Assembly (NCBI GenBank): GCA_964441025.1
Contig: CAYTXG010000006.1
Location: 32,829 to 96,828, forward strand
Direction of reading: 5' to 3'
DNA: 64,000 nt
DNA from: an uncultured Syntrophomonadaceae bacterium
Lineage (GTDB): Bacteria > Bacillota > Dethiobacteria > DTU022
In this document: positions 5,674-35,951 of the stretch, piece by piece
How positions within the stretch are numbered: position 1 is the first letter of the stretch
Layout: every line of letters starts with the position of its first letter
Program-made: the position numbers and the translations under genes
Notes under the pieces: model-generated
What the model was told of the DNA's origin: nothing
Databases searched by the model: none
The model's input: only the letters and a program-made list of their open reading frames with translations

Positions 5674-5718
5674 GGATCATCCCTCCCAGATTTGCTGGGG
5701 CCGCTGCCGCTGCACAGG

Positions 5719-6249: not shown

Positions 6250-6261
6250 CGCCCGCGGAAG

Positions 6262-6906
6262 CTAAAGATATTTGCTGGCCTCCCTGATGCTGAGAGGCGC
6301 CATCATGCCCCGGTGCCTCTCGATAAAACCGCGCACCCAGGCGGGGTCTGTTTTGCTGTATTGGCGCAGGCTCCAGCCGATGGCTTTGTTGATAAAAAAT
6401 TCCTCCTGCCCCAGGTTATTGACAATAATCTGCTCCAGCAGAACAGGGTCGGTCTTCTCCTTCCACATCAACTGGTGGTCGATGGAGATTCTGCGCAGCC
6501 AGATATTATCGTCTGTGCTCCACTCCAGAAGGATCGCTTTCGCCCCGGGGCAGCGCAGGGCGATATCCCCGATGACAACATTAAGGCCGTCAATGGTATC
6601 CCACCACGATTTTTGCACCGCCAGTTCGCGCAGCCTCGGTATATCCGCCGCTGTCAGCAGGGCCTTCATTTTGGATAGATAGTCAACGGCAAGATACTGG
6701 AATTCGCGCTCGGGCTGCCGCCAGCATTCTAATATAAAGTCCCATTCCACAATCCCTTGATCCATGCCCCTGAAGAAATTGCGGGAAAGCCTCCTCCGTT
6801 CCGGAGTGGCGATACCCAGAAAGGGGAACCGGTTGCGCATGTAAGCGCTCATGGGAGCGGCTTTTTCGGGGTTTGCCGCCAACCTGAATCGTTCAAATAT
6901 ATCCAT
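6262..6906 (-). CDS. DNA alkylation repair enzyme (AlkD-like HEAT-repeat DNA glycosylase family)
   Basis: 214 aa. ...PFLGIATPERRRLSRNFF...QPEREFQYLAVDYLSK...WWDTIDGL...INKAIGWSLRQYSKTDPAWVRGFIE matches the conserved C-terminal signature of the DNA_alkylation family. Confidence 0.7.
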   Translation of the reverse strand: MDIFERFRLAANPEKAAPMSAYMRNRFPFLGIATPERRRLSRNFFRGMDQGIVEWDFILECWRQPEREFQYLAVDYLSKMKALLTAADIPRLRELAVQKSWWDTIDGLNVVIGDIALRCPGAKAILLEWSTDDNIWLRRISIDHQLMWKEKTDPVLLEQIIVNNLGQEEFFINKAIGWSLRQYSKTDPAWVRGFIERHRGMMAPLSIREASKYL

Positions 6907-6916
6907 GGTCGCCCCC

Positions 6917-7267
6917 TCAGGCAGGAGTAGTCTTCCCGGCTGATTTGCCGCTTTTTTTCTTTTTCGGCTGCGGCACCTTCACCACAGGCAGGAGAGCGGC
7001 AATGACCTCCGCTGCCAGCTCCCGGTTTTCGACATCCAGGATGTAGTGCTCTTTTGCCCCCTCATAGGGGCAGCCTTTGTCGGCATTTCCCATCAGGCCG
7101 TCAAGAACAGGCAGAATTTTTACATAAACAGTGTTGTCGCAAACAAGGAGAATGGGTTTGTCATCGATGTAGACCAGATATTCGCCGAACATCTTTTTGC
7201 ATCGGAGAGCACCGGCGCCTTCAACCTGCTCGCAGACATACTCCACAAAATCGGCCGTTGTAGCCAT
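6917..7267 (-). CDS. TfoX N-terminal domain protein (stand-alone TfoX/Sxy-N)
   Basis: FVEYVCEQVEGAGALRCKKMFGEYLVYIDDKPILLVCDNTVYVK carries the TfoX_N signature (KMFGxxxxYxxGKxF). It has a Lys-rich tail. Confidence 0.7.
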   Translation of the reverse strand: MATTADFVEYVCEQVEGAGALRCKKMFGEYLVYIDDKPILLVCDNTVYVKILPVLDGLMGNADKGCPYEGAKEHYILDVENRELAAEVIAALLPVVKVPQPKKKKSGKSAGKTTPA

Positions 7268-7286
7268 CCCAACCCTCCCCGGCGGA

Positions 7287-7514
7287 TCAAAATATTTTTA
7301 TGATCCCGCCGTATTCTTCTGCCTTCTTCAGCAGCGACCCCCGGGCGACCATGGTAAAAGCAATATCGCTGCTCCGGATGCATAAAAGCGCCGCCCCTTC
7401 TTCAAGATTTACTCGCTCCCCAACTATGGACTGCATCAGACTGGTACTATTATTTGCCAAGCGAAAGAGATATTCCTGCTCGAGAAGGAAAGGGACAAAG
7501 GGGATGCCCGGCAC
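7287..7514 (-). CDS. Hypothetical small protein (75 aa)
   Basis: It is an ORF with coding-like composition and no confident family match. Confidence 0.35.
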   Translation of the reverse strand: MPGIPFVPFLLEQEYLFRLANNSTSLMQSIVGERVNLEEGAALLCIRSSDIAFTMVARGSLLKKAEEYGGIIKIF

Positions 7515-7713
7515 ATGCAGCAGCGGGATTACGTTAGTGTTACAATCAGAGAAGTTAAGGATAATTTACTCCATGGAAAAAGGGTTTTTGCAAAGCGGCG
7601 ATCCCATAAGCTACAACAAACCGCGGCGTCTATCGGATACAGGGCAAATTATGAAATTGTACCGGGCATTTCGGCCTTCCCGATTGTATTAGTAGTGAAA
7701 GGAGGGCAAGCCG

Positions 7714-8211
7714 ATGGCGAACTCTTTGTTACGTACGGACAAAGAGATTGCAGAAATTTACGAGCGCCATAAAAAGACGGTGTACCGCGTCTGCTTTGCT
7801 TACATGAAAAATCAGCCTGATACCGAAGACGTCGTCCAGGATACATTTTATCAGTTGATCAGGAAGGGGCCTGTTTTCGGGAGCGAAGAGCACGAAAAGG
7901 CCTGGCTGATCAGAACGGCTACGAATTTGTGCAAAAACGGTCTGCGGTACTGGTGGCGCAGGCGCAGAAATCTGGATGATTGCTGGGCTCTGCAGGAGAA
8001 CGGCGATGTGGAGATCAGCGACACCCTCAGCGCAGTGATGGAGCTGCCCGAAAAATACAAGACGGTAGTCTATCTCTACTACTACGAGGGATACAACAGC
8101 GTGGAGATCTCCAGGATTCTCGGCAAACCCGGATCCACAATCCGCAACCATCTCCATGGAGCGCGCCGGGCCCTCCGGGACAAATTAGGTGGTGATTTCG
8201 ATGAAACATAG
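7714..8211 (+). CDS. ECF-family RNA polymerase sigma factor (sigma-70 regions 2 and 4)
   Basis: Region 2 is DTEDVVQDTFYQLIRKGPVF and region 4 is [47 protein letters not shown] lies 7 nt upstream of the ATG. Confidence 0.9.
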   Translation: MANSLLRTDKEIAEIYERHKKTVYRVCFAYMKNQPDTEDVVQDTFYQLIRKGPVFGSEEHEKAWLIRTATNLCKNGLRYWWRRRRNLDDCWALQENGDVEISDTLSAVMELPEKYKTVVYLYYYEGYNSVEISRILGKPGSTIRNHLHGARRALRDKLGGDFDET

Positions 8212-9013
8212 GCGAATCGCAGATGCATGGAACAAGATCGAGCCGGACAGCGACGCCGACAGGCGGATGCTGGCGGCAATCTTGAGCGACAACCGCTCTG
8301 AAAAAAGCAGAAGGGGGAGAGCAGGTGCGATGAACAGAAAAATTAACTGGAAAGTGCTGGCCCCTGTTGCCGCCTGCCTGGTGCTGGCCCTGGCCATCGC
8401 CGTACCGCTTTTTTCAGGCGGCGGGAACAGCTTTGACCTCAAGCGGTCAAGGGGCGTGAAAGTTGCCCATGTGCATAAGCTCCGGACACCGGCAGTTCCC
8501 AAAGCTGATCTCACGGTATTGACGGAAGAGGAGCTTTTCGGGGAAACATTTCGGGATTACGAGGTGGTCGCTTTCGAGGGAACCATCGTAGAGGTCCGCA
8601 ACATTGTCTGCGACTACAGCGGGGCCAAGGATTACCGCGCTATCGCCACCATCGAGGTGCAGGAGGTGCTGCGCGGAAACCTAACGACAGGAGCAACAGT
8701 CACGGTTCTCCTGCCCGGCCCCGTTGATGTAAAGGGGCTGTGGATTGAAGACACCGGCGTCTCCTCACATATGAGGGCGGGGACCAGGGGTATCTTTATG
8801 CCCATCAGATATGATGAAACATCAATCCGCGAAGAGAATGGCGTGAAACTCGCCCTGCTCGATCTGGCCGCATACGGACTTCTCGACGGCGAGCGCTGGG
8901 CCTTTCTCGAAACCGCAGAGGGGCTGACCTACTACACCTGGGCCTACCCGTCACTGGCGGGCGCAAAAAATCTGGAGGAGGTAAAAGAGATCATCCTTCC
9001 GAAACTCAAATAG
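8201..9013 (+). CDS. Anti-sigma factor (single-pass membrane protein) cognate to the ECF sigma
   Basis: Its start overlaps the sigma-gene stop. It has a short N-terminal cytoplasmic helix (MKHRRIADAWNKIEPD), a TM segment (WKVLAPVAACLVLALAIAV) and an extracytoplasmic domain of about 200 aa. Confidence 0.8.
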   Translation: MKHRRIADAWNKIEPDSDADRRMLAAILSDNRSEKSRRGRAGAMNRKINWKVLAPVAACLVLALAIAVPLFSGGGNSFDLKRSRGVKVAHVHKLRTPAVPKADLTVLTEEELFGETFRDYEVVAFEGTIVEVRNIVCDYSGAKDYRAIATIEVQEVLRGNLTTGATVTVLLPGPVDVKGLWIEDTGVSSHMRAGTRGIFMPIRYDETSIREENGVKLALLDLAAYGLLDGERWAFLETAEGLTYYTWAYPSLAGAKNLEEVKEIILPKLK

Positions 9014-9021
9014 CTTTAAGC

Positions 9022-9062
9022 TGGAGAAGCTCTGAAAGCGGCAGTTACGCCGCTTTCAGAGC
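9022..9062. terminator. Strong bidirectional intrinsic terminator after the sigma/anti-sigma operon
   Basis: A perfect 17-bp inverted repeat, GAAGCTCTGAAAGCGGC-agtta-GCCGCTTTCAGAGCTTC, followed by TTTACC. Confidence 0.7.
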
Positions 9063-9206
9063 TTCTTTACCGGAACGCCTGTACAGGTGGCCGCTCCCGT
9101 TTTTTCCATTGCAGCATTATGCATACGCATGCCTCCGGAAACATCAACGCTCCCTGCTCCGGATCCCAATCAATCTATTTGATCGGATATACCTTGAATC
9201 TATAAT

Positions 9207-9256
9207 ACCATGAAAAAAGGACATAAGATCTCCTTGCCGGAAATCCTATGTCCTTT
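9207..9256 (-). terminator. Rho-independent terminator downstream of the minus-strand tRNA cluster
   Basis: On the minus strand, AAAAGGACATAGG...CTTATGTCCTTTTTTT is a hairpin plus a U-run directly after the tRNA-Arg 3' end. Confidence 0.6.
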
Positions 9257-9334
9257 TGGTGCGCCCGGCAGGATTTGAACCTGCGACCTCCTGATTCGTA
9301 GTCAGTTACTCTATCCGGACTGAGCTACGGGCGC
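9257..9334 (-). tRNA. tRNA-Arg (anticodon ACG, the TadA substrate)
   Basis: The reverse complement GCGCCCGTAGCTCAGTCCGGATAGAGTAACTGACTACGAATCAG...GGTTCAAATCCTGCCGGGCGCACCA has anticodon loop CT-ACG-AA, homologous to Bacillus tRNA-Arg(ACG). Confidence 0.88.
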
Positions 9335-9337
9335 ATG

Positions 9338-9431
9338 TGGCGGAGAGAGAGGGATTCGAACCCTCGAAGCAGGCTTTTACCCACTTAATCGCTTAGCAGG
9401 CGACCGCCTTCAACCTCTCGGCCATCTCTCC
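9338..9431 (-). tRNA. tRNA-Ser (anticodon GCT)
   Basis: The reverse complement GGAGAGATGGCCGAGAGGTTGAAGGCGGTCGCCTGCTAAGCGAT...long variable arm...GGGTTCGAATCCCTCTCTCTCCGCCA has anticodon loop cT-GCT-aa. Confidence 0.9.
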
Positions 9432-9446
9432 GTGCTGCCTCTATTT

Positions 9447-9533
9447 TGGCGGAGGGGGTGGGATTCGAACCCACGGCCCTTTCGGGTCACCGGTTTTCAA
9501 GACCGGCTCCTTCAACCGCTCGGACACCCCTCC
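9447..9533 (-). tRNA. tRNA-Ser (anticodon TGA)
   Basis: The reverse complement GGAGGGGTGTCCGAGCGGTTGAAGGAGCCGGTCTTGAAAACCGGT...GGGTTCGAATCCCACCCCCTCCGCCA has anticodon loop cT-TGA-aa. Confidence 0.9.
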
Positions 9534-15098: not shown

Positions 15099-16529
15099 TT
15101 AATTATCGTTAACATCCTCCTTCAGCAGCAGCGGCAGGGTGAAATAAAAAGCACTCCCTTCGCCCTCCTTGCTACCGGCCCACACCCTGCCTCCATGCGC
15201 CTCCACTGTTTCCCGGACAATGGCCAGGCCCAGCCCCGTGCCTCCCATTTCCCGGGAACGGGCCCGGTCAACCCGGAAAAATCGCTCAAAAATGAAGGGG
15301 AGATCCTTTTCCGGTATGCCGCATCCGGTATCCTCAACTTTTATTTCCACCGCTTCCCCCTCTCTCCAGAGCGACAATTTAACCCATCCCCCCGGTGGAG
15401 TGTACTTCAGGGCATTATCCAGGAGGTTGTGCAGCACCTGGCATAACTGGAGTTTGGAACCGGCGATGGGGTAGCTCCCCGTCGGCACATCGCTAAGCAG
15501 CCTCACATTTTGCCGGTCAAAACGGGGTGCAGCCTGCCTTATCAGATCACGAACAAGCTCATCAAAAGCAAGCCCTTCATGGTGGGCTTCCCCGCCTTCA
15601 AGGGTGGTCAGCTCCAACAGATCCCGGACCAGGGCAACTAGCCGCTCCATTTCGCGGTCAAGATCATCCAGGAACTCCCGCTGCTGCTCCGGCTCCATCT
15701 CATAATCCTTGAGCGATCTGGTCAGCAGGCTGAGCGAAGCCAGGGGGGTGCGCAGTTCATGCGCCACATTGGCAACAAATTTACGCAAATTTTGAGTATA
15801 ATAATCAAGCTTCTCCGCCATCAGGTTAAACCTGTCGGCAAGCCGACCGATCTCATCCTCCGACTTCACCGGAATACGCTGCTCCAGTTTTCCCTCGGCC
15901 ATCTTTCCTGCCGCTTCTGTAAGTATCTCCAGGGGGCCGGTAAAGCGTTGAGCCATGAAGACCGCGCCGATTCCAGTCATTACAGCTGCAAGCAGGGTGG
16001 CCAGTATGAGAAAGCCCCGGATATCAGCCATGATCTTATCGATCTCCTGCAGGGAGGCGGAAAGAAAAACAGCCCCCACCGGCTTCTCTTCTTCATCCAG
16101 CACGGGCAAAGCCACCTGCATAACCTTCTGTTTCGACAGCTCGCTGTATTGAATGCTAATACCGGTTTCACCGGCAAAGGCGGCAGCTACCTCCTCACGG
16201 TCAAGGAGCTGCCCCAGCAGCCCGCCCACCCGGACAGAGTCTCCGATAACAATCCCCTTTTTATTGACAAAAATAACTCGAGCCTTCATCTGGCGGCTGA
16301 AATTTTCCGCCAGCCAGCTCAGGCGAACGGGATCAGCCTCCTCCTGGAGCTGCCCGGCTACGAACTGCCCTGCCAGGGCTCCCGAGCGGATCAGGTTGTC
16401 CTGCAGGGCATTAATATAATAGCGTCCCATCACCTGATCCAGAAAAAAAGCGACGATGAGCATAACTGCCAAAATCGCCACCAAAAAAGTAACCGTGAGG
16501 CGGGAGCGGATGCTTTTGAATTTAAACAT
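15099..16529 (-). CDS. Sensor histidine kinase (WalK/MtrB-like: 2 TM, periplasmic loop, HAMP, HisKA, HATPase)
   Basis: It has TM1 LTVTFLVAILAVMLIVAFFL, a loop of about 150 aa, TM2 FLILATLLAAVMTGIGAVFMA, a HAMP domain, the H-box VANVAHELRTPLASL, an N-box LLDNALKYT and G-boxes DTGCGIP and GGTGLGLAIV. I placed the start at MFKFK, which overlaps the RR stop (ATGA). The track ORF starts at 16565. Confidence 0.9.
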   Translation of the reverse strand: MFKFKSIRSRLTVTFLVAILAVMLIVAFFLDQVMGRYYINALQDNLIRSGALAGQFVAGQLQEEADPVRLSWLAENFSRQMKARVIFVNKKGIVIGDSVRVGGLLGQLLDREEVAAAFAGETGISIQYSELSKQKVMQVALPVLDEEEKPVGAVFLSASLQEIDKIMADIRGFLILATLLAAVMTGIGAVFMAQRFTGPLEILTEAAGKMAEGKLEQRIPVKSEDEIGRLADRFNLMAEKLDYYTQNLRKFVANVAHELRTPLASLSLLTRSLKDYEMEPEQQREFLDDLDREMERLVALVRDLLELTTLEGGEAHHEGLAFDELVRDLIRQAAPRFDRQNVRLLSDVPTGSYPIAGSKLQLCQVLHNLLDNALKYTPPGGWVKLSLWREGEAVEIKVEDTGCGIPEKDLPFIFERFFRVDRARSREMGGTGLGLAIVRETVEAHGGRVWAGSKEGEGSAFYFTLPLLLKEDVNDN

Positions 16530-17224
16530 CAAAGTTCCTCTCTGAATTTGTAACCTGTTCCCCACACCGTCAGGATCAACCGGGGGTTGCTTGGATCCTC
16601 CTCGATTTTTTCGCGCAGATGCCGTATATGAACATCTACAGTTCGGGCATCTCCATAATAATTGTAACCCCAGATCTGCTCCAGGAGCTGTTCCCTTGAG
16701 TAAACCCGGCCTGCATTGGAGGCCAGAAAACTCAAGAGGGCAAATTCTTTTGCCGTCAGGTCTACATCCCTCTCGCCTTTGATTACCCGGTGCTGCAGGA
16801 GGTCAATCTGCAGTTCTCCGATTTGAATCCTTTTGCGCAGCCCCTCATCCCTGGCGGCGCTGCGCCTTAAAATGGCCTTCATCCGGGCGACAAGTTCCCG
16901 GGGGTTAAAGGGCTTGGTCATGTAATCGTCAGCGCCCAGCTCCAGGCCGAGGACCTTGTCAATGTCCTCACCCTTTGCGGTCAGCATGATGATGGGGATC
17001 TCTTCTTTTTTGCGAATTTCCCGGCAAACCTCGAAACCGTCCAGGCCCGGCAGCATCAGATCGAGAATAATAATATCCGGGGCCGCTTCAAAGGCCTTCT
17101 CCAGCGCTTCTTCACCGTTGTAGGCCTCTTCAACAAGGAAGCCTTCCTTTTCAAGGTTGAATTTCAATGCCTTAACCAGGGTTTTTTCGTCATCCACTAA
17201 AAGAACTTTCTTTTGGGCGGACAT
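16529..17224 (-). CDS. OmpR-family response regulator (WalR/MtrA-like)
   Basis: The receiver domain is KKVLLVDDE...IIILDLMLPGLDGFEV...[41 protein letters not shown]. It has a winged-helix C-terminus. It is about 65% identical to the second RR at 58308-59000. Confidence 0.92.
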   Translation of the reverse strand: MSAQKKVLLVDDEKTLVKALKFNLEKEGFLVEEAYNGEEALEKAFEAAPDIIILDLMLPGLDGFEVCREIRKKEEIPIIMLTAKGEDIDKVLGLELGADDYMTKPFNPRELVARMKAILRRSAARDEGLRKRIQIGELQIDLLQHRVIKGERDVDLTAKEFALLSFLASNAGRVYSREQLLEQIWGYNYYGDARTVDVHIRHLREKIEEDPSNPRLILTVWGTGYKFREEL

Positions 17225-17230
17225 ACACTT

Positions 17231-17869
17231 CTAACCTCCGCTACTGATCTGCCGATAACAACGCGCTATTTCTTTAAAATCTTCCCAAACCGGCCTCTTT
17301 TTGCTGCTGTCGCGGAGCAGCGCCGCGGGATGGAAGGTGGGCATGCAGCGGCGCCCCTCAATAGTGTACCAGCGCCCCCGCAGGCGGGTCAGTGATTCGC
17401 TGCCGCCGATCAGGTTCCGCGTGGCCAGGGCGCCCAGGCAAACTATGAGCGTGGGATTAATCAGGCGGATCTGCTCTTTAAGGTGAAGCAAACACTGCGC
17501 CGCTTCGCCGGTTTCGGGGAGGCGGTTGCCGGGAGGACGGCACTTGACCACATTGGTGATATAAAGCTCTTCCCGTTTCAGCCCCGCCGCCTCCAGGATG
17601 CGGTCAAGGAGCCTGCCCGCCGTTCCCACAAAGGGCTTGCCGAGGCGATCTTCCTCCGCGCCGGGGCCTTCACCCACCAGCATGAGCCCGGCTCTTGGGC
17701 TGCCCTCACCGAATACAACCTGGCGGCAGCCGGATCTCAGGACGCAAAGGTTGCAAGAGCGGCACCTTTTTTCCAGCCCGGCCAGTTCAAGCTCTATATC
17801 CTTCTCCCCTGAGCCGCCTTCAACCCTGTCCAGATAATCGAAGAGCGTTTGCTGGTTGTTCTCCTTCAA
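17231..17869 (-). CDS. Uracil-DNA glycosylase, family 4 (4Fe-4S type)
   Basis: It has a Cys cluster (CRSCNLC), GEGPGAEEDRLGKPFVG (the family 4 active-site motif GEAPG), and HPAALLR near the C-terminus. It sits 6 nt upstream of the RR gene. Confidence 0.85.
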   Translation of the reverse strand: MKENNQQTLFDYLDRVEGGSGEKDIELELAGLEKRCRSCNLCVLRSGCRQVVFGEGSPRAGLMLVGEGPGAEEDRLGKPFVGTAGRLLDRILEAAGLKREELYITNVVKCRPPGNRLPETGEAAQCLLHLKEQIRLINPTLIVCLGALATRNLIGGSESLTRLRGRWYTIEGRRCMPTFHPAALLRDSSKKRPVWEDFKEIARCYRQISSGG

Positions 17870-17924: not shown

Positions 17925-19073
17925 CTAATTTGGGATCATCTCTTCGGCGGCGCCAACAGCTGATCCTCTTTTCAGCGGGTAACCGAGCGATTGCAAAACC
18001 ATCTCCAGGGCGGCGATACCGGCCAGCACATCAAAATAGCCCACCGCTCCCAGGTGGCCTACACGAAACATCTTCCCCTCCAGCGCACCCTGGCCGCCGG
18101 CAATCTCCACCTCGAAACGATCACGCATCTCCGCCTGAAGCCTATCCTCCTTTACCCCGGGAGGGTTCATGACTGCCGTCACCGTGGGTGAGGCAAAGCG
18201 CTCCTCCTTAACCAGCAACTCCAATCCCAGCGCCCGCACTGCAGCCCGCACTGCCGAAGCCATGCACCGGTGCCTGATATAACAGTTTTCCCGCCCTTCG
18301 GAAAAATAAATCTGCAGCGCCTCCCGTAGGGCGACAAACTGGGGCAAAGCGGGCGTGAAGGGAGTTTGCCCTTTTTGCAGCAGTTTTTCAGCCGTCTGAA
18401 GATTGAAATAGTATTTCGGCATCGCGGAGCTTGCCGCCGCCCGCCAGGCCCTCTCCCCGGCGCTGATGAAAGAAATCCCCGGAGGGAGCTGAAGGGCTTT
18501 CTGGGAGGCGGTAAAACAGACATCAATGCCCAGCCGGTCTACAGGGATGTCAACGGCGCCCATGGAACTGACAGTGTCAACCATGAGCAGGGCAGGATGA
18601 TCGCCTCGCATACGGCTGATCGCTTCCAGATCATTGATCATTCCGGTGGAGGATTCGTTGTGGACAACTGTAATCGCGCGAACAGTTCTGTTTTTGTCTT
18701 TCCGCAGCTTCGCTTCAAAACTGTCGTAGTCCAGGGGCTGCCCCCAGGGGGTTTCCATACGTTCAACGCTCCCCCCGTACACGGCGGCAATCTTTGCAAA
18801 GCGGTCCCCAAAAGATCCGTTGACAAGCGATACAATCCTGTCGCCCGGAGACAAAAAATTTACAACAGCCGCTTCCATGGCCCCTGTTCCCGAAGCGGTC
18901 AGCATAAAAAGGCGGGCTTCGGTCTGGAAAATTTCCTTCAAAGAGGCGGTCAGTTCTGCGATAAGTTCTGCAAAGCGGGGTCCGCGGTGGTTGAACATCT
19001 CCGCGGACATGACCTGCGCCACCCTGTGGGGAACGGGTGTCGGGCCGGGAATCAGCAGATAGTTACTGGGCAT
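17925..19073 (-). CDS. Class V aminotransferase (alanine-glyoxylate / serine-pyruvate / archaeal-type phosphoserine aminotransferase-like)
   Basis: LLIPGPTPVPHRVAQ...TGMINDL...TASQKALQLPPG carries the PLP-Lys motif of the AGXT family. I chose the start at MPSNYLLIPGP (GAGGAG upstream). The track ORF extends to 19271. Confidence 0.8.
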   Translation of the reverse strand: MPSNYLLIPGPTPVPHRVAQVMSAEMFNHRGPRFAELIAELTASLKEIFQTEARLFMLTASGTGAMEAAVVNFLSPGDRIVSLVNGSFGDRFAKIAAVYGGSVERMETPWGQPLDYDSFEAKLRKDKNRTVRAITVVHNESSTGMINDLEAISRMRGDHPALLMVDTVSSMGAVDIPVDRLGIDVCFTASQKALQLPPGISFISAGERAWRAAASSAMPKYYFNLQTAEKLLQKGQTPFTPALPQFVALREALQIYFSEGRENCYIRHRCMASAVRAAVRALGLELLVKEERFASPTVTAVMNPPGVKEDRLQAEMRDRFEVEIAGGQGALEGKMFRVGHLGAVGYFDVLAGIAALEMVLQSLGYPLKRGSAVGAAEEMIPN

Positions 19074-19110
19074 TCTCGATTGCAACTCCTCTTCTTTTAA
19101 TCTTTCTTTT

Positions 19111-20256
19111 CTACTCCGGCGGGGCGGTACGCAGCCCCCGGCGGCGGGCAAATCTGTCCTCCGCCAGTTCCAGCAGCCGGCTGACCAGATCGCGGAAGCC
19201 AATCCCGCTAACCTCCCACAGCTTGGGATACATGCTGATGATGGTGAATCCGGGCATAGTGTTGATCTCATTGATCATAATCGACTCCGCCTCCGGATTG
19301 ACGAAAAAATCGACGCGGGCCAGCCCGCTGGCCTCAACGGAGGTAAAGGCGCGGCAGGCCAGCTCCTGGATCTTTGCTTCAAGCCCCGGAGGCAGATCCG
19401 CTGGATAGATCAGCTCTGAGCGATCATCGAGGTACTTGGCTTTATAATCGTAAAATTCGTTGCAGGGGATAATTTCTCCCGCCCGTGAAGCCCGGGGCTC
19501 CAGATCACCCAGAACGCTGCATTCTATCTCCCTGCCCTTGAGTTCCCCCTCAACAATAACCTTGTCGTCATAACGCAGGGCTTCCTCAATGGCAACGGCC
19601 AGACGGGCCGCATCTGAAACCCTGGTTATACCCACACTGGAGCCGAGATTGGCTGGCTTGACAAAACAGGGCAGTTTCAGCTCCCGGCAGATCCGCCCCA
19701 CCAGAAGGGAGGCTTTGCAGCGCCATTCCCAACGGGTGAAATAGAGATAAGGGCCCACCGGTAAACCGTGCTTCAGAAAGAGCATTTTCATCACCGTTTT
19801 ATCCATGGCCACCGCTGACGAGAGCACCCCGCACCCCACGTAGGGAATTCCGGAAAGTTCAAGCAAACCCTGTATGGTTCCATCCTCGCCATAGGGACCG
19901 TGCAAAACGGGAAAGACCAGATCAAGGTGCTGAAATCCCCACGAATCAGGCCAACCCTTATTTTCAACCAGCAGGCCCGGCCGGCGGGGATCAGTCAACA
20001 TCACCGCCCTCTGAAGGCCCTGCAGATCTCCCCGTTCCCGGAGCAGGCTCCAGGCCTCGCTGCCCGTGAACCAGGTTCCCTCCCTGCTAATGCCGATGGG
20101 AATTATTCTGTAACGCTCCCCGTCAATCGCCTCCATAATCGAGCGCGCTGATTTTAACGAGACAACATGCTCCCCGGAACTGCCCCCGAAGATCACGGCA
20201 ACTGTTTTTCGATTCAAGGCTTCCTGTCCTCCCAGGTTAGATTTGCGGCTGAACAT
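19111..20256 (-). CDS. ddl: D-alanine--D-alanine ligase
   Basis: KTVAVIFGGSSGEHVVSLKSARSI... is the N-terminal signature. ...VFPVLHGPYGEDGTIQGLLELSGIPYVG... and the ATP-grasp C-terminus (...INEINTMPGFT) match Ddl. The start may lie slightly downstream of the track start. Confidence 0.88.
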   Translation of the reverse strand: MFSRKSNLGGQEALNRKTVAVIFGGSSGEHVVSLKSARSIMEAIDGERYRIIPIGISREGTWFTGSEAWSLLRERGDLQGLQRAVMLTDPRRPGLLVENKGWPDSWGFQHLDLVFPVLHGPYGEDGTIQGLLELSGIPYVGCGVLSSAVAMDKTVMKMLFLKHGLPVGPYLYFTRWEWRCKASLLVGRICRELKLPCFVKPANLGSSVGITRVSDAARLAVAIEEALRYDDKVIVEGELKGREIECSVLGDLEPRASRAGEIIPCNEFYDYKAKYLDDRSELIYPADLPPGLEAKIQELACRAFTSVEASGLARVDFFVNPEAESIMINEINTMPGFTIISMYPKLWEVSGIGFRDLVSRLLELAEDRFARRRGLRTAPPE

Positions 20257-20388
20257 TCGCTCTGCAAAAACCGGTCCAGGTAAAATTTATTTTTCATTAT
20301 ATCATAATATGATCATCCCATTTATTTGAATACCCGGGGGCACCGGCCCTTGCATGCCCGCCCCGGCGGTTTTGGATAAACCTTGAAT

Positions 20389-20417
20389 TTGTCTCCGCGT
20401 TCAAGAAGGTTTATAAT
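20389..20417 (+). promoter_or_regulatory. Sigma-A promoter for the ATP-grasp gene
   Basis: TTGTCT, a 17-nt spacer, then TATAAT. It is followed by GGAGGG and a GTG start at 20450. Confidence 0.5.
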
Positions 20418-20449
20418 CAAAAGCGAACATTTCGCTGAGGAGGGATCCA

Positions 20450-21712
20450 GTGCTGCCTGCATCAGTTATTCTCGGAGCAAACTTTTATACTCCTCTCGGA
20501 GCCATCCGTACCCTGGGACGCCGCGGCGTCAGGGTCTATGCTTTTGACTATCATTTTCCCTCTGCTTACGCCCTTTCCTCAAAATATGTCTTTAAAAAAG
20601 TGCTCTGCCCCGATGTAAACAAAGATGAAAAGGGGCTGGCCGGCTTCCTGCTTGACTTTGGAAAGCAGTTCGCAGATCGGCCGGTGCTGATGGCGGGCCA
20701 TGACAATTACGCCCTCCTGATCTCACGCTATGCAGAGGAGCTGTCCAGATATTACCGGATTCCCCAAAACCCTCCGGGACTGCTCGAGGAGATCATCAAC
20801 AAGAAAGGGCTGTACCGTATAGCCCAAAAACTCGGTCTGCGAATGCCCCTTTCTTTTTTCGTGGAGAGCAATACTGACCTCTCAGGGGTGGCGGAGCAGA
20901 TGCACTTCCCCTGCATGATCAAGCCGGCGCTGTCCCACGAGTTTGTGCGCCTTTTCCGGAGCAAGTGCCTTATCGCCGGCGACAGGGACTCTTTGAGCAG
21001 CGCCCTGGCCCGGGCGCGGGCCGCCGGCCTTGAGATAATGGTTCAGGAGATCATCCCCGGTTTTGACGACTGCATGTATGTTTTTGACACCTATATCAAT
21101 ACTGAGGGCCGGGCCACGCACACCCTTACCGCGCAGAAACTGCGCCAGTTCCCCATTAATTTTGGCTCCTCCACCCTGACCCATCACTGCTGCGATGCCG
21201 AGATTACCGCCCTGGGTCTCGAGTACATGCGGCTTATCGGCTACCGCGGCTACGGTGAAATCGAATTCAAGCGGCATCCCGTCACCGGGGATCTCTACAT
21301 GATCGAAATAAATGCCCGCTTAAGCAGCCTGAATGCTCTTTTTGACAAATGCGGCGTAGAGTTCGCCTATATCCATTACCGGGATCTTATCGGTAGACCG
21401 CTGCCCGATCACCACCCCGAAGAAGAGAAACCCTGGGCCTTCTGGCATGCCTATGAAGATATTTTCAGCACCAGGGCTTACCTGAAAAGCCGCCAGCTCC
21501 GCTGCAAAGAGATCCTCCGCCCCTGGCTGAGCCACCACAAAGCCCATGCCCTCTGGGCCGCCGATGATCCAAAGCCTTTATTTTCCTTCGGCAGGGTGCT
21601 CTTGATGAAGCTGCTCAAAAAGGCAGGCGGGCTGTTCAGGCGGATTTTCCCCTCTCTGGGGGCAGCCGCCGGGGAAAAAAAGGAGCCCTCCCTATCAAAA
21701 AGGGAGGCTTAA
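20450..21712 (+). CDS. ATP-grasp family carboxylate-amine ligase (D-aspartate ligase / PylC-like)
   Basis: 420 aa. The pre-ATP-grasp and ATP-grasp motifs are IGYRGYGEIEFKRHPVTGDLYMIEINAR and EIMVQEIIPG. Confidence 0.75.
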   Translation: MLPASVILGANFYTPLGAIRTLGRRGVRVYAFDYHFPSAYALSSKYVFKKVLCPDVNKDEKGLAGFLLDFGKQFADRPVLMAGHDNYALLISRYAEELSRYYRIPQNPPGLLEEIINKKGLYRIAQKLGLRMPLSFFVESNTDLSGVAEQMHFPCMIKPALSHEFVRLFRSKCLIAGDRDSLSSALARARAAGLEIMVQEIIPGFDDCMYVFDTYINTEGRATHTLTAQKLRQFPINFGSSTLTHHCCDAEITALGLEYMRLIGYRGYGEIEFKRHPVTGDLYMIEINARLSSLNALFDKCGVEFAYIHYRDLIGRPLPDHHPEEEKPWAFWHAYEDIFSTRAYLKSRQLRCKEILRPWLSHHKAHALWAADDPKPLFSFGRVLLMKLLKKAGGLFRRIFPSLGAAAGEKKEPSLSKREA

Positions 21713-22780
21713 GGCGGCGCCCCTACCGGCTTTAATCATCCGCATTGCCGAATCATAGAATAAGGGAAAGAGGCGCCGCCAGATCCAGTAGTATGCCCGG
21801 GAGAGCGCCAGATCCTGCTCGCCAATAAAGGCATGGAATTCACCGCCAAAGCTCTTTTTAAAGTGGTAAATACCGTACAGAGGGTGTGCTTCGCCTACCT
21901 CCCCGGGAACACCGTAAAAATCAAACCAGCGTGCTCCCCTGCTTTTGGCCCACCTGATCCGTTCCCAGATGAGGGCATGATAGGCATAGAGGTTCCGATA
22001 GCGATCGCTCTGGCTGCCGTAAACAGCCCAGGCCTTTCCGCCAAAGGCAAATGTAATCCCGGCGACTATAACCTCGCCCCCGAAGCGGCCCAGCGTAAGC
22101 CGGATTACCCCTTCAGGTCCCAGGATCGCGAATAGTCTGCGGTAGTAATCAGGCTTCCGGCCGACAAAGCCCCCCCGCTTCGCTGTTTTTTCCATCAGGC
22201 GTATGAACTCAGGCAGCCCTTCTTCGCCGGGGGAGAAAAACTCCAGCCCCCTGGCGGGACCGTACCTGATTTTATAGCGGATTTTTTTGGGAAAACGGTC
22301 CATGATCTCCTCAGGATCGCCGCTCAGATCGAGACGGAAGGTATAGCGCGGCTGTAACCCCCCGAAGTCATGCTCCCCCGGGGCGGGGCGGAACCCGATC
22401 CGGGAAAGCGCTGCAGCAGGCGCCGTCTGCTTCTCAGTAAGGCAGGGGTCAATTTTGATCAGAACTGCCCGGTGCTCTTCGGCCAAGTTGCGTATGCCGC
22501 TGAAGAGCTCCCTCAATACAGTTGCGTTGTTCCAATCCAGGGGCACCGGTCCGCGCGGCAGGTAGAAAATTGTTCGTTGCCCCAGGGGTATTTTACGCTT
22601 CAGGATCGAAGCCGCCGCCGCAATGCGTCCTTCCTCCTCCAGCACTGCGCGCAAAGGCTGCCAGGCTGTTTTCTTCAGTTCCCCCCACATATATGACTGA
22701 AATAAATGTCCCCCGGCAGCGGAGCGGATAAAATCATCAAAGCGCCCCGCCTCTGCCGCCGTGATCAATCTAAATTGCAC
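21695..22780 (-). CDS. FemABX-family (aminoacyl-tRNA dependent) peptidyltransferase-like protein
   Basis: 361 aa. It has a duplicated GNAT-like Fem fold (...HLFQSYMWGELK...YLPRGPV... N-terminal; ...RNLYAYHALIWERIRWAKSRGARWFDFYGV...YHFKKSFGGEF C-terminal), characteristic of FemX/FemA/MurM. Confidence 0.7.
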   Translation of the reverse strand: MQFRLITAAEAGRFDDFIRSAAGGHLFQSYMWGELKKTAWQPLRAVLEEEGRIAAAASILKRKIPLGQRTIFYLPRGPVPLDWNNATVLRELFSGIRNLAEEHRAVLIKIDPCLTEKQTAPAAALSRIGFRPAPGEHDFGGLQPRYTFRLDLSGDPEEIMDRFPKKIRYKIRYGPARGLEFFSPGEEGLPEFIRLMEKTAKRGGFVGRKPDYYRRLFAILGPEGVIRLTLGRFGGEVIVAGITFAFGGKAWAVYGSQSDRYRNLYAYHALIWERIRWAKSRGARWFDFYGVPGEVGEAHPLYGIYHFKKSFGGEFHAFIGEQDLALSRAYYWIWRRLFPLFYDSAMRMIKAGRGAALSLPF

Positions 22781-22962: not shown

Positions 22963-25047
22963 TTATTCTTTCTCCTTTTCCTCTTTGGCCGCAGCAATAA
23001 CCTGTTCGGCAAACTGGTGCGGCACCTCCTCATAGTGAGAAAAGACCATGGAAAAAAATCCGCGGCCCTGTGTCATGGAGCGCAGATCTATAGAGTATCT
23101 GAACATCTCGGACATGGGAACCTGGGCCCGGACTTTCTGCAGTTCATCAGCGGATTCAACGCCCTGGATCCGCCCCCTGCGCCCGTTCAGATCGCCCATG
23201 ATATCGCCCATAAAGGTATCAGGAACAATGATATCCACATTCATCACCGGCTCCAGCAGGACCGGTTGCGCCAGCTCCATCCCCTTGCGGAACGCCATCC
23301 CCGAGGCAATTTTAAAAGCCATCTCGGAGGAATCCACGGTATGGTAAGAGCCGTCAACCAGCCTCACCCCGATATCGACTACCGGGTAACCTGCGAGTAC
23401 ACCTTCTTCCATGGCCTCGCGGATTCCTTTCTCCACAGCGGGAACATACTGCTTCGGGACCACGCCCCCGAAGATTTTATCTTCAAAGATAAGCCCCTCT
23501 CCCGGTGACAGCGGCTCCAGTTCGAGATAGACATGGCCGTACTGCCCGCGTCCGCCGGTCTGTTTTTTATGCTTGCCTTCAATCTTGACCTGGCCGCGGA
23601 TGGTCTCTTTGTACGGCACTTTCGGCGTGGACAGATCAACCTCCACCCCGAATTTCTGAGCCAGCCGGCTGACAATGATCTCCAGATGCAGTTCCCCCAG
23701 GCCTGAAATAACCGTTTGCCGTGTTTCCGCCCTCCGCTCCAGGCGAAAGGTAGGATCCTCCTCGAGGAAACGCGAAAGGCCGCTGCTGACCTTCTCCTCA
23801 TCTCCTTTTGTCTTCGGCTCCACGGCAAAAGAGATTACAGGGTCAGGGAACTCTATGGGCACAAATTGAAAGGGGCTGCTGCGGTCGCATAGTGTGTCGC
23901 CGGTGGCGGTTTGCTGCAGCTTGGCCACGGCGGCGATGTCGCCGGCCACCACCTCTTCCATCGAGATCTGGTTCTTGCCCCGCATGGAGAATATCTGTCC
24001 GACACGCTCGCTCTTCTCCTTGTTCACATTGTAGATCTGTGAATCTGGACTCATGGTCCCGGAATAGACCCTGAAATAATTGATCCGCCCCACATAGGGA
24101 TCTGCCAGGGTTTTATAAACCAGCGCGGCAAAGGGTTCATCGGGGGAAATATTTCGGCTAACCTTCTCTTCGCTACCCGGTAGGATCCCGTCGATCTCCC
24201 CTCGATCAAGGGGTGAGGGCATGTACGTCTTTATGAAATCCAAAAGCGGTCCGCTGCCGTAGTTTTTTGTCGCCGCACCGCAGAGCACTGGGATGATCTT
24301 GCGCTCAGAGATGCCGCGGCGCAGCGCCAGCAGGATCTCTTCTCGATCCAGGGTTTCGCCTTCAAGGTATTTAAGCAGGAGCTCATCTTCTGTTTCCGCC
24401 GCCGCCTCGATCAGTTTTTCCCGGAGGGTTTTCGCCTCTCCGCGCAGCTCCTCTGGGATTTCGGCCTCTTCGATCTTTTTCCCCTCATCTGAAAAATAAA
24501 ATGCCTTCTCTTCAACAAGATCAACCAGGCCTTTGAAGTTTTCTTCCTTTCCAATGGGCAGCTGCACCGGAACCACTTTGATGCCGAAATGTTTCTGCAG
24601 CTGAGCCAGGGTCCCTTCAAAATCAGCGTTCTCCCGATCCAGTTTGTTGATCAGAACAAGGCGGGGCAGCTCAAAATCATCGGCATATTGCCAGACCTTC
24701 TCTGTGCCCACTTCAACACCGGAAACGGCGCAGACAACCACTGCGACGCAGTCGACTACGCGCAGCGCTCCAAGCAGATCCCCGATAAAGTCAAAATAAC
24801 CGGGCGTATCCAGAAGATTCACCTTAACCCCATTCCATTCCAGGGGAGCAAGGCCCACATTGATTGTTACCTGCCTTTTGATCTCATCAGGATCATAATC
24901 TGTGGTTGTGGTACCCGCCTCGATATTCCCCAGGCGGTTAACGGCCCCGCCGCTAAAAAGAAGAGCCTCGGCAAGGGAAGTTTTCCCGGCGCCTCCGTGA
25001 GAAATTAAAGCAATGTTGCGGATTGCTTCGCTGGGGTACTTTTTCAA
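22963..25047 (-). CDS. Elongation factor G paralog (EF-G2-like translational GTPase)
   Basis: 694 aa. The G-domain motifs are ISHGGAGKTS (G1), DTPGYFDF (G3) and NKLDR (G4). EF-G domains II to V are conserved, but the N-terminus and G1 differ from canonical FusA (AHIDAGKTT). Confidence 0.8.
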   Translation of the reverse strand: MKKYPSEAIRNIALISHGGAGKTSLAEALLFSGGAVNRLGNIEAGTTTTDYDPDEIKRQVTINVGLAPLEWNGVKVNLLDTPGYFDFIGDLLGALRVVDCVAVVVCAVSGVEVGTEKVWQYADDFELPRLVLINKLDRENADFEGTLAQLQKHFGIKVVPVQLPIGKEENFKGLVDLVEEKAFYFSDEGKKIEEAEIPEELRGEAKTLREKLIEAAAETEDELLLKYLEGETLDREEILLALRRGISERKIIPVLCGAATKNYGSGPLLDFIKTYMPSPLDRGEIDGILPGSEEKVSRNISPDEPFAALVYKTLADPYVGRINYFRVYSGTMSPDSQIYNVNKEKSERVGQIFSMRGKNQISMEEVVAGDIAAVAKLQQTATGDTLCDRSSPFQFVPIEFPDPVISFAVEPKTKGDEEKVSSGLSRFLEEDPTFRLERRAETRQTVISGLGELHLEIIVSRLAQKFGVEVDLSTPKVPYKETIRGQVKIEGKHKKQTGGRGQYGHVYLELEPLSPGEGLIFEDKIFGGVVPKQYVPAVEKGIREAMEEGVLAGYPVVDIGVRLVDGSYHTVDSSEMAFKIASGMAFRKGMELAQPVLLEPVMNVDIIVPDTFMGDIMGDLNGRRGRIQGVESADELQKVRAQVPMSEMFRYSIDLRSMTQGRGFFSMVFSHYEEVPHQFAEQVIAAAKEEKEKE

Positions 25048-31121: not shown

Positions 31122-33068
<1,947 letters not shown>

Positions 33069-33101
33069 TTAATTATATCATCAATCTCCCGGCGATTAAA
33101 C

Positions 33102-33353
33102 TTAACTTTCCCGCTTACCCGGTGCTTCATTTCTTCGGGCCAGCGTTGCCGGAACAACAGATGAGAAAAAAAGACCATCCTCTGTAACAATGAAAGATTT
33201 GCATTCCTCCAGCTTGCTGCTGAGGTAAAAGTTTCCTTTACTGGATGACTCCAAAAACTGCTTATTAATCGGGTTGTCCTTCAAATTCATATGGAAAATA
33301 CCGATAAGATCTTTTTTATATACAATGCGTGAATATCCGATGTGTAAAAACAT
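33102..33353 (-). CDS. DUF370 protein (RemA/RemB extracellular-matrix regulator family, YaaB-like)
   Basis: 83 aa. MFLHIGYSRIVYKKDLIGIF...SKGNFYLSSKLEECKSFIVTEDGLFFSSVVPATLARR matches the DUF370 pattern. It sits between recF and gyrB, like B. subtilis yaaB. Confidence 0.65.
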   Translation of the reverse strand: MFLHIGYSRIVYKKDLIGIFHMNLKDNPINKQFLESSSKGNFYLSSKLEECKSFIVTEDGLFFSSVVPATLARRNEAPGKRES

Positions 33354-33424
33354 CTCATACCCCCTGCAATTTGCGATTGACTGCGTATTTTAATAATCAA
33401 GGCAGACTCACTGCAAGTATACCT

Positions 33425-33721
33425 CTATTTTTTTGAATCAAGCCCAATCTGGAAATATATATCTTTAATCATCTTTTCTCCGGCATGTTTGTTTAATTTT
33501 TCAATTAATTGCGGTTTCAGCAGTGTGAGGTGGTAGACCCAGGTAGAGTTGCTCACCATAACCCTGAGCACCTGCCTTTGCAGGCTGCAGGCGCTTGTTA
33601 CGGCGGCTATCTCCTTGCCGACAAGTTGATCCCACTCATCTATTATAAGGCACTGTTTGTATTGCCGCCACATCTTTCTTTTGCGCAGCACCTGCTCAAT
33701 AATCTGTCCCAGCTCTTTCAA
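33425..33721 (-). CDS. DUF721 protein (DciA-like)
   Basis: 98 aa. LGQIIEQVL...W.QLVGKEIAAVTSACSLQRQVLRVMVSNSTWVYHLTLLKPQLIEKLNKHAGEKMIKDIYFQIG matches the DUF721 signature (W-EIVG-IA-HT-P--L--G-L-V-V-SS-W--EL--LK--I--KLN...I-DIRF). It overlaps the recF stop. Confidence 0.7.
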   Translation of the reverse strand: MKELGQIIEQVLRKRKMWRQYKQCLIIDEWDQLVGKEIAAVTSACSLQRQVLRVMVSNSTWVYHLTLLKPQLIEKLNKHAGEKMIKDIYFQIGLDSKK

Positions 33722-34829
33722 TCCTAACCTCCCCCCCGGAAAGTGTAAAAAAATGCGACCCTGACTTATATTCCTTTTCCAAATCAGGCAGTGGAACGGC
33801 AGTGGTAATAAAAGATTGATCCTCTCTGGCTTTGATAAATGTTAATAGCCGGCTGCGCCTCTCTTCATCAAGCTCGGAAAAGACGTCATCAAGCAGCAGA
33901 ATAGATTTTTCATCGCAGGTGCTGTTGAATAGATCCACTTCTCCCATTTTCAAAGCAAGCACAGCTGTTCGCTGCTGCCCCTGGGAGCCGAATTTGCGTA
34001 TATCTGAACCGTTGATCATAACAGTAAAATCATCGATGTGCGGTCCAATGGCAGTAGATCCCCTGCGCAGCTCTGAGAAACGGGCACTCTGCAGCTGTTC
34101 CCGGTATAAGCTGACCATCAACACCGGATCTTCGACTAAATTAACCGTTGATCTGTAAAGGAGAGAAATATTTTCACCTTCTGAAGTTAAAGAGGTAAAG
34201 TGTACGCGGGACGCTGATTCCAGCTCTTCTACAAATTTCATTCTCTCCCTGATAATCCAGGCGCCTGTTTCCGCAAGCGCCTGTTCCCATGGCTTCATAA
34301 TAGCATAATCTATTAAACGACTTCCCCTTTTCTCTTTCAAAATACGGTTACGCTGGCGTAATGCGCGATAGTAATGACGCAGTTTGCTGTAATAGAGCGG
34401 CTTCAGACGGGAACACTCCATATCAAGGAAACGGCGGCGCACAGAGGGACCCTCTTTAACCAGAAACAGATCATCCGGGGCAAATATGACCATGGGGTGA
34501 CGGTAAATATAATCGCTTCTGGTAAAGGGTTTCCCATTTATTTTAATCTGGAGACGATGCGGCTGCTGGTAAGCTGTCTCGGCTGTACAGCGTCCTTCAC
34601 CTGTAACAAAAGCTCCCTTGAGGTAAAAATAATCGCTGCCGAAGCGTGAAATTTCCATATCCTGGCTGGTGCGAAAAGAGCGAGAAACAGAGATATAGTA
34701 GAGCGCCTCCAGGAGATTGGTCTTACCCTGCCCATTGTTTCCAAAAAATATATTTACCCCAGGATGAAACAGCAGATCCTGGCGGCGGTAATTCCGGAAG
34801 TTGATCAGGTTAAGCGACTCTAGATACAC
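33696..34829 (-). CDS. recF: DNA replication and repair protein RecF
   Basis: It has Walker A (NIFFGNNGQGKTNLLEAL), an ABC signature and Walker B (ILLLDDVFSELD). Confidence 0.95.
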   Translation of the reverse strand: MYLESLNLINFRNYRRQDLLFHPGVNIFFGNNGQGKTNLLEALYYISVSRSFRTSQDMEISRFGSDYFYLKGAFVTGEGRCTAETAYQQPHRLQIKINGKPFTRSDYIYRHPMVIFAPDDLFLVKEGPSVRRRFLDMECSRLKPLYYSKLRHYYRALRQRNRILKEKRGSRLIDYAIMKPWEQALAETGAWIIRERMKFVEELESASRVHFTSLTSEGENISLLYRSTVNLVEDPVLMVSLYREQLQSARFSELRRGSTAIGPHIDDFTVMINGSDIRKFGSQGQQRTAVLALKMGEVDLFNSTCDEKSILLLDDVFSELDEERRSRLLTFIKAREDQSFITTAVPLPDLEKEYKSGSHFFTLSGGEVRIERAGTDY

Positions 34830-34847
34830 GTTCCTAACACCCGATCA

Positions 34848-35951
34848 TCAGTAGTCCATTTTAATTGGCAGCACAAGATAAAGATAACTTTCATCCCCGG
34901 GCAGGCGAAATATTACCGGTCCCGTTTTCCCGTGAAAATCAATAGTTATCTCTTCTGTGGAAACAGCCCTTAAAAAATCCATAATAAAACGAGAATTAAT
35001 ATGAAGTTCAACCTCTTCACCCTGGCAATCAACAGAAAGCTCTTCCTCCATCCGGCCGATCTGGGATGAAACTCGTACCACCATAGAGCCGCTGCCCACA
35101 GATAGCTGAATCGCGCTGTTAGGTCCTTCCGCCAGTAGTGCAGCACGGGCAACAGTCTCCGCCATGGAACTGCGATTCGTTTTTACCCTTGTTAAATAGC
35201 GCTCGGGGATAACTGAACTTATATCGGGATATTTTTCATTGAGCAGCCTGGCGGCAAAATACACAGTTCCAAAATTGAAAATGAGCTGCTCACCGCCGGA
35301 AAAAAATTCTATCTCCTTTTCGCTTTGCTCAATAATTTTCAGCAGTTCACGCAGAGCTTTAGCCGGGACAAGACATCTCCTGTTTGGAAAGTTCCATTTG
35401 CCGTCTGATATATCTTTCACCGCGAGGCGATAGGTATCGGAACTCATCAAAGTGAGACGAGTGCAGTCAAACTCGAAAAGAACACCATTAAAGGCCGGCC
35501 TGGTTTCCTCAGCGGATGCCGCAAAGATAACCATTTTCAAAGTTTTCTTTAATTCCTGCGGATCTATGGAGATTGAAGTATTGTTTTCCGGGACGATTTT
35601 TTCCAAAGGAGGAAAATCCGCAGGATCAGCGCCGGCCAGGGTAAATTTTGACGGTCCGCAGCTGAGGTTGACCTGTAAATTTTCAATGTCAATTTCAAAA
35701 TCTACCTCGGATTCAGGCAGGTAACGAACAATTTCAGCAATTTTAGACGGCAACAGTATTTTTCCCGAGGCCTCCCCCTTGTATGGCAGAGCCACCTTGA
35801 TAAAAAGTTCAAGGTTTGTTGCAGCCAGGGTAATTTTCTCAGGATCTGTTTCACAAAAGATGTTATCCAGATACTGAATGGGTGATTGCCTTGAAAGGGC
35901 TTTTTCAACAATATCCAGGTATTGGCCAAAAGCTTCTTTTGAAAGGATCAT
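34848..35951 (-). CDS. dnaN: DNA polymerase III beta sliding clamp
   Basis: Three-domain beta-clamp sequence starting at MILSKEAFGQYLDIVEKALSRQSPIQYLDNIF. The track ORF extends 5' to 36155 through the dnaA-dnaN origin region. I chose the ATG at 35951. Confidence 0.92.
   Translation of the reverse strand: MILSKEAFGQYLDIVEKALSRQSPIQYLDNIFCETDPEKITLAATNLELFIKVALPYKGEASGKILLPSKIAEIVRYLPESEVDFEIDIENLQVNLSCGPSKFTLAGADPADFPPLEKIVPENNTSISIDPQELKKTLKMVIFAASAEETRPAFNGVLFEFDCTRLTLMSSDTYRLAVKDISDGKWNFPNRRCLVPAKALRELLKIIEQSEKEIEFFSGGEQLIFNFGTVYFAARLLNEKYPDISSVIPERYLTRVKTNRSSMAETVARAALLAEGPNSAIQLSVGSGSMVVRVSSQIGRMEEELSVDCQGEEVELHINSRFIMDFLRAVSTEEITIDFHGKTGPVIFRLPGDESYLYLVLPIKMDY

Follow-up and report, generated by a model that had tools for sequence, protein, structure and literature searches.

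Between the genes for D-Ala-D-Ala ligase (ddl) and elongation factor G (EF-G; gene fusA) of an uncultured Syntrophomonadaceae bacterium there is what is probably an exchangeable cassette for side-chain, i.e., cross-bridge, synthesis, and with the housekeeping ddl at its centre the whole is best seen as a module acting on peptidoglycan precursors. The locus lies in a stretch of 64,000 nucleotides (contig CAYTXG010000006.1, positions 32,829 to 96,828, of assembly GCA_964441025.1), here termed the window, and the genome concerned, G000, is represented by a 1.96-Mb assembly that is 94% complete. In it the cassette consists of genes for an ATP-grasp carboxylate-amine ligase, hereafter A, and for a short FemX-like transferase, hereafter Fem (G, L and P numbers below are our designations for genomes, loci and proteins). 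Both enzyme families are already known. What appear to be new are a family-specific clade of Asl-like ligases that lacks an accompanying racemase and is anchored at ddl or at a penicillin-binding protein (PBP) gene, the pairing of such a ligase with a short FemX, and a slot with exchangeable content, from which related genera are predicted to differ in wall chemistry.

The ddl gene (19111–20256, minus strand) specifies a protein of 381 amino acids that passes NF002528 with 439 bits (cut-off 262) and matches PF07478 and PF01820. The NCBIfam models for ligases of the VanA, VanB, VanC and VanG types all score far under their cut-offs, and the product is the sole above-cut-off match to TIGR01205 in the assembly. 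Divergent from ddl, and separated from it by 193 bp, is the gene for A (20450–21712, plus strand; 420 amino acids), whose placement in an Asl-like clade comes from its profile, fold model and relatives. Convergent with it, and overlapping it by 18 nt, is the Fem gene (21695–22780, minus strand; 361 amino acids), the product of which is predicted to be aminoacyl-tRNA-dependent. Bioreactor metagenome contigs of another study span both junctions with zero differences, so the arrangement is not an artefact of assembly, and the three intact open reading frames given in a preliminary description of this DNA, made from its letters only, stand as described there. The arrangement recurs in species of the window's genus, and DNA of the window occurs in metagenomes from bioreactors and from wastewater, with no RNA set among the sources listed for it. 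Two of the relatives considered below have proteins whose identical counterparts bear the NCBI names ‘Dethiobacter sp.’ and ‘Dethiobacteria bacterium’.

How constant is the content of the space between ddl and fusA? Among 36 species-level relatives in the window's family, f1, the backbone is conserved, the order being a GerM-like gene, a WalK-like histidine kinase, a response regulator, a uracil-DNA glycosylase, in some an aminotransferase, and then ddl, with EF-G flanking the slot in all relatives examined. In the window the near flank (15099–17869, minus strand) specifies the WalK-like kinase, the response regulator and a family 4 uracil-DNA glycosylase, identified with Pfam and NCBIfam, and the far boundary is fusA (22963–25047, minus strand; NF009381, 1003 bits). 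It is what stands between that varies. A without Fem is present in 13 genomes, and in 2 others where contig ends limit the view, and is then always divergent from ddl; Fem without A is present in six (G009, G022, G024, G026, G029 and G030), and both are present in six genomes of one genus. Four of the latter, G002, G003, G007 and that of the window, have the convergent form, and in G001 and G008 there is a same-strand tandem, with ATP-grasp followed by Fem. The co-location of ATP-grasp and Fem genes at ddl, which the preliminary description had emphasised, thus holds for the window, but the two are not a fixed pair and most relatives carry one of them. A adjoins ddl in about 22 genomes of the family.

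Yet another filling is found in G012 and G032 (L155:7331-9393 and L156), where the slot has a different ATP-grasp, B (438 amino acids), and after it an aspartate-type racemase (TIGR00035, 211 bits). On comparison of B with A by hhalign the probability is 99.8% at 21% identity. In G006 (L054) A is at ddl, and B with its racemase is at EF-G, on two contig ends. A natural guess is that the donor for B is D-Asp provided by the adjacent racemase, and among the arrangements seen this is the closest to aslA-racD of Lactococcus lactis, to which we return.

In the ddl tree there is one clade of genomes with A only, a grade of those with Fem only, and a mixed clade made up of the window's genus and the lineage g5. 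All A proteins of the family form one strongly supported clade, well separated (support 99) from the operon-type ATP-grasps considered below, and within it the A of the tandem form is on a long separate branch. The Fem tree has two paralogue clades, with the convergent cassettes drawing on one and the tandem cassettes, though of the same genus, on the other; G009 and G024 carry both paralogues. The slot has thus been refilled several times, and since the two forms differ both in Fem clade and in A branch, co-location of A and Fem was reached, or kept, more than once. The slot enzymes were not found in the sister family, f3. A bolder proposal, which is attractive though we would sooner bet against it than for it, is that the ddl–fusA interval is a recombination slot through which whole cross-bridge cassettes (an Asl-like ligase, either Fem paralogue, the two enzymes together, or a second ligase and a racemase) have been repeatedly exchanged within one family of uncultured anaerobes, so that chemically different walls would separate close genera and in places the species within a genus, with tRNA-dependent and ATP-grasp steps in the window's species building a mixed bridge of L- and acidic residues, possibly on meso-diaminopimelic acid (meso-DAP).

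What ties the two accessory genes to the cell wall is, besides ddl, the company kept by their relatives elsewhere. In G020 and G023 (L037:5782-10292 and L034) A is not at ddl and is instead divergent from the gene for a 1012-amino acid class A PBP. Outside the family its nearest relatives from named organisms are proteins of Natranaerobius thermophilus (39% identical) and Marinilactibacillus (38%). A scan of named genomes with this group of relatives took in no more than the 80 loci nearest to the Marinilactibacillus protein (L056-L135), which come from Marinilactibacillus, Alkalibacterium, Halobacillus, many Tissierellia and some Neobacillus, Paenibacillus and Virgibacillus. A MurE-like ligase of 515 amino acids follows the ATP-grasp in 76 of them and an aspartate-type Asp/Glu racemase in 60, with an asparagine synthase nearby in 13; some of these loci also have FtsX/PcsB-like genes. 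The operon of ATP-grasp, MurE-like ligase and racemase is intact in the order-level relatives G044 and G048. The walls known from Halobacillus, Alkalibacterium and Marinilactibacillus are of the Orn-D-Asp or Orn-D-Glu type, and the operon also occurs in Neobacillus, Paenibacillus and Virgibacillus, which are usually described as meso-DAP types. A literature search found no paper on such an operon, and nothing on the peptidoglycan of Dethiobacteria. The operon parallels the D-aspartate branch of L. lactis, where the ATP-grasp AslA and the racemase RacD are encoded in the same operon and AsnH amidates the bridge (PMC4155827). As for Fem, its homologue in G037 (L052:4903-7492) and in G021 (L050:5086-7724) adjoins a MurE with DNPA or DNPV, not DNPR, a motif that makes those MurE proteins resemble the lysine type. 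With ddl, a class A PBP gene, and MurE-like and aspartate racemase genes as recurring contexts, the involvement in peptidoglycan synthesis earlier proposed for both accessory genes is upheld.

What can be said of A itself? Its profile matches are weak (CPSase_L_D2 and PRK12767, in Pfam and NCBIfam). The AlphaFold model, derived with 44 homologues, has a mean predicted local distance difference test score of 93.7 and confidently shows a canonical ATP-grasp fold, and Foldseek matches it to ATP-grasp enzymes with a probability of 1.00. The nearest solved folds are 2pn1, an uncharacterised ‘CPS-like’ protein, 3vot, which is an L-amino-acid ligase, PurK and biotin carboxylases, and a sequence search of the PDB gave remote carbamoyl-phosphate synthetase matches only. 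As these structures are generic, remote or, in the case of 2pn1, uncharacterised, they permit no deduction about the substrate of A. The nucleotide- and Mg-binding residues of an ATP-grasp are kept: in the 44 homologues K118, K158, K172, N288 and R290 are invariant, and E286 is nearly so. The ESM Atlas offers generic ‘carboxylate--amine ligase’ clusters only; close homologues bear either that name or ‘D-aspartate ligase’ by automatic annotation at their sources, the latter (from JGI) being on homologues about 65% identical to A. The clade also contains tandem double or larger fusions of 800–1600 amino acids (P0123, P0124, P0131 and P0132), one example being an Omnitrophota protein of 846 amino acids with two matched stretches. 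A comparison with PylC had been made in the preliminary description; no PylC model is among the NCBIfam and Pfam matches, the neighbours are ddl, Fem and EF-G rather than pylB and pylD, and that comparison is best dropped.

The D-aspartate ligases (EC 6.3.1.12) Aslfm of Enterococcus faecium and AslA of L. lactis, which join D-Asp to the epsilon-amine of L-Lys in UDP-N-acetylmuramoyl-pentapeptide, are, like A, ATP-grasp carboxylate-amine ligases of about 400–420 amino acids linked to peptidoglycan genes, and the 38%-identical relatives of A share operons with an aspartate-type racemase and often with an asparagine synthase. There are differences. A adjoins ddl rather than racD, with no racemase in the ddl/ATP-grasp/Fem locus or found in G000; the stem peptide in the window's organism may be DAP-based; and the donor for A is probably not D-Asp. 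The three-gene operon of Halobacillus, Alkalibacterium, Marinilactibacillus, Tissierellia and others, itself uncharacterised, may be compared as well. The ATP-grasps are homologous (38–40% identity) and G000 has a ligase that matches the MurE-like one, but its parts are dispersed, with A at ddl, the second MurE-like ligase on another contig and no racemase found.

The Fem protein matches PF02388 (FemAB) with 159 bits (cut-off 24) in two stretches, and also PF13480, and it aligns across residues 12–327, i.e., nearly full length, with the UDP-N-acetylmuramoyl (UDP-MurNAc)-pentapeptide:L-Ala transferase FemX of Weissella viridescens (1NE9, 4II9), both being short (about 335–360 amino acids) and armless. 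In the alignment K36, D111, R208, F307 and K308 of Fem correspond to Lys36, Asp108, Arg211, Phe304 and Lys305 of the Weissella enzyme, of which Lys36 and Arg211 bind the phosphates and D-Ala residues of UDP-MurNAc-pentapeptide (PMC2655667) and Lys305 is catalytic (PMC12945691). In sequence it is closer to FemX of Staphylococcus aureus, the best PDB match (6snr, 1e-36), than to that of Weissella. However, 6snr has a coiled-coil helical arm, about 70 residues long (233–305), that has no counterpart in Fem, where only residues 233–240 correspond to it, and the 361 amino acids of Fem contrast with 420–426 in long forms. Because the arm is absent even with S. aureus FemX as best match, Fem is considered a short FemX-type enzyme, and the check suggested earlier, of whether it might belong to a lipid-unrelated clade of GNAT (GCN5-related N-acetyltransferase) proteins, came out in favour of the FemX type. 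The precursor on which it acts is not deducible from the conserved residues as the lipid II-dependent S. aureus FemX has them too. With that enzyme, FemA and FemB, with MurM and MurN, and with BppA1 and BppA2, all lipid II-dependent bridge builders, Fem shares its Pfam family, and the two Fem paralogues of G009 and G024 are as would be expected of sequential bridge synthesis. Against the NCBIfam equivalog NF047883 it scores 115 bits, the cut-off being 500. No dedicated tRNA gene is near Fem, the nearest tRNA genes being about 10 kb off. At 1474–9533 on the minus strand there are four genes for tRNA-Ser (GGA, CGA, GCT and TGA) and one for tRNA-Arg within 8 kb, with no evident link to Fem.

If the cassette does build a cross-bridge, the steps could be as follows, though donors, step order, the choice between nucleotide- and lipid-linked substrate, and the acceptor are all inferred. 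Ddl would make D-Ala-D-Ala. With aminoacyl-tRNA as its donor, Fem would load glycine, or else an L-amino acid, onto residue 3 of the stem at the side-chain amine. A would act as Aslfm and AslA do: a free acidic amino acid would be phosphorylated on its side-chain carboxylate, and the residue so activated, an acyl phosphate, would be ligated to the amino group still free on the branch growing from the stem peptide. Genomes with both genes would thus have a branch of two residues, the Fem step being first and that of ATP-grasp second, and the alpha-amino group of the acidic residue would accept the cross-link, as happens in bridges of the A4 type (Lys-L-Ala-D-Glu, for example). A single residue per branch is what relatives with one gene would make.

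On what residue would such a branch be built? The preliminary description had noted that direct meso-DAP cross-links are usually assumed for organisms of this kind. A MurE with the DNPR motif is indeed present, but the premise of a plain meso-DAP wall is made uncertain by a second, family-wide paralogue, here MurE2 (513 amino acids, without DNPR), which is outside the window at G000:C5:29710-31251 (L148:8710-10251). It is convergent with a LiaF-like gene, and has a SpoIID-like gene and an asparagine synthase nearby; compared full length with the corresponding ligase in the three-gene operon of Halobacillus, it shows 59% identity. MurE genes other than MurE2 are present in both Halobacillus and Marinilactibacillus, Halobacillus karajensis having four MurE-like genes of which only that in the dcw (division and cell wall) cluster has DNPR. 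The MurE enzymes of G000 thus leave two acceptors to be considered, namely meso-DAP, if the DNPR-type MurE provides the third residue, and a Lys- or Orn-like one, if MurE2 does. MurE2 was considered as a strict partner of A and rejected, as it is in 33 of the 36 family genomes whatever the slot holds; it was not found in f3.

Several considerations weigh against a cross-bridge cassette of this kind. The likeness of A to Asl rests on its fold, the gene context of its relatives and automatic source names; gene neighbourhood as evidence is circumstantial; and A and Fem are largely alternatives in their distribution, as they might also be if each made its own one-step modification, independently, and could replace the other, with no joint pathway. 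The MurE of the dcw cluster is, by its sequence, of the DAP type (DNPR motif; NF001126, the DAP-ligase equivalog, 509 bits with a cut-off of 373), and the only descriptions known to us of acidic-residue branches on meso-DAP (A4-gamma) come from Actinobacteria. As to the donor, neither an Asp/Glu racemase (PF01177, TIGR00067) nor a class IV aminotransferase (PF01063) was found in the 94%-complete assembly of G000, and only 6 of the 15 genomes with A only have an aspartate-type racemase.

Because an aspartate-type racemase is missing from most genomes with A, G000 included, D-Asp is unlikely to be its general donor, and as a candidate it was judged the less likely one; D-Glu or an L-acidic amino acid is more likely. 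The closest relative, G002 (87% complete), is also without PF01177, and most relatives have one MurI-like gene. The missing racemase genes of G000 reflect either a gap in the assembly or another source of D-Glu.

Must A and Fem act in series at all? That they modify precursors independently, either as interchangeable one-step alternatives or on different pools, for example with the vegetative wall made from the MurE2 product and a spore cortex that is DAP-based, is the alternative to be taken most seriously. A single gene is what most slots contain (15 with A only and 6 with Fem only), the genome has two MurE-type ligases, and in the window A and Fem, being convergent, are not co-transcribed. 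Nevertheless, six genomes of the same genus keep both genes and do so in two non-orthologous arrangements, one of which, the same-strand tandem, is operon-like, and we regard independent action as rather unlikely. Less likely again is that the carboxylate activated by A is not that of an incoming amino acid but one of the stem, either the alpha-carboxyl of D-Glu or the DAP carboxyl, or belongs to another envelope polymer, so that an amino acid or amine is added there as a decoration, and that Fem does the bridging on its own. ATP-grasp enzymes can activate the carboxylate of either partner, A has no accompanying racemase, and its substrate pocket cannot be read from solved structures with the uncharacterised 2pn1 as the best match. 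Yet the nearest relatives from named genomes are in operons of the Asl/RacD kind, and in genomes without Fem neither ddl nor the PBP gene has a candidate side-chain enzyme beside it other than the ATP-grasp, so that stem decoration seems improbable.

There is very little to commend a tRNA-dependent natural-product pathway, which the preliminary description had suggested as an alternative. On this reading the pair would resemble transferases such as PacB, VlmA, DhpH/K and Orf11, would make a small product or peptide that has nothing to do with the wall, and would adjoin ddl by chance. Fem-like GNAT transferases are indeed known from natural-product pathways (PMC12945691), but no biosynthetic, tailoring, resistance or export genes were found around the locus, the flanks here are ddl, EF-G, an aminotransferase and a WalRK-like system with similarly housekeeping or cell wall neighbours in relatives, the position is conserved in more than 20 genera with PBP and MurE genes as the other contexts, and Fem keeps the residues with which Weissella FemX binds UDP-MurNAc-pentapeptide.

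Should a cross-bridge cassette be what the slot contains, it would be of wider relevance. Bridge chemistry sets susceptibility to endolysins, to lysostaphin-like bacteriocins and to some antibiotics, and it is a classical taxonomic marker. To our knowledge the genes responsible have been found for few types only, namely Fem, MurM and Bpp where L-residues or glycine are added, and Asl where D-Asp is joined to lysine; we know of no enzymes identified for mixed bridges of an L-residue and a D-acidic residue, or for acidic bridges on DAP. Nor are we aware of any organism in which a gene has been assigned to a mixed bridge of L- and acidic residues on meso-DAP, or of any member of the Bacillota in which such a bridge has been described. 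The present locus provides compact, expressible candidates for the enzymes of mixed and of acidic bridges, and its one-gene and two-gene variants, in a neighbourhood that is constant, are a natural series from which assignments can be tested in vitro. It also suggests that the wall chemistry of uncultured Bacillota is not to be assumed from class membership.

Some minor features of the locus remain. The intergenic region between the divergent ddl and ATP-grasp genes (20257–20449) has promoter-like sites on both strands, each a match to consensus only: on the plus strand TTGTCT-17-TATAAT at 20389–20417, and on the minus strand a site at 20330–20301. A terminator-like hairpin on the minus strand (21687–21707), a pattern match only, is at the 3′ end of the Fem gene and within the 3′ end of the ATP-grasp gene. 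Directly downstream of ddl, at a distance of about 20–40 bp, is the gene for a class V aminotransferase (17925–19090, minus strand; PF00266), which is probably co-transcribed with it. As listed its open reading frame reaches 19271, and homology begins near residue 67. The nearest NCBIfam model is BhcA-like (aspartate-glyoxylate aminotransferase), with 334 bits against a cut-off of 650, and a link to the supply of glycine or of another donor is possible. The aminotransferase follows ddl in the Fem-containing and g5 lineages, and not in the clade with ATP-grasp only. That the organism is a spore former is consistent with the GerM-domain and SpoIID-type genes in its genome. Finally, a dnaA gene at 36705–37187 (minus strand), together with a change of sign in the GC (guanine–cytosine) skew and a dip in G+C content to 0.42–0.46 in the region 32000–40000, leads us to think that the window probably spans the replication origin, from which the ddl slot is about 15 kb distant.

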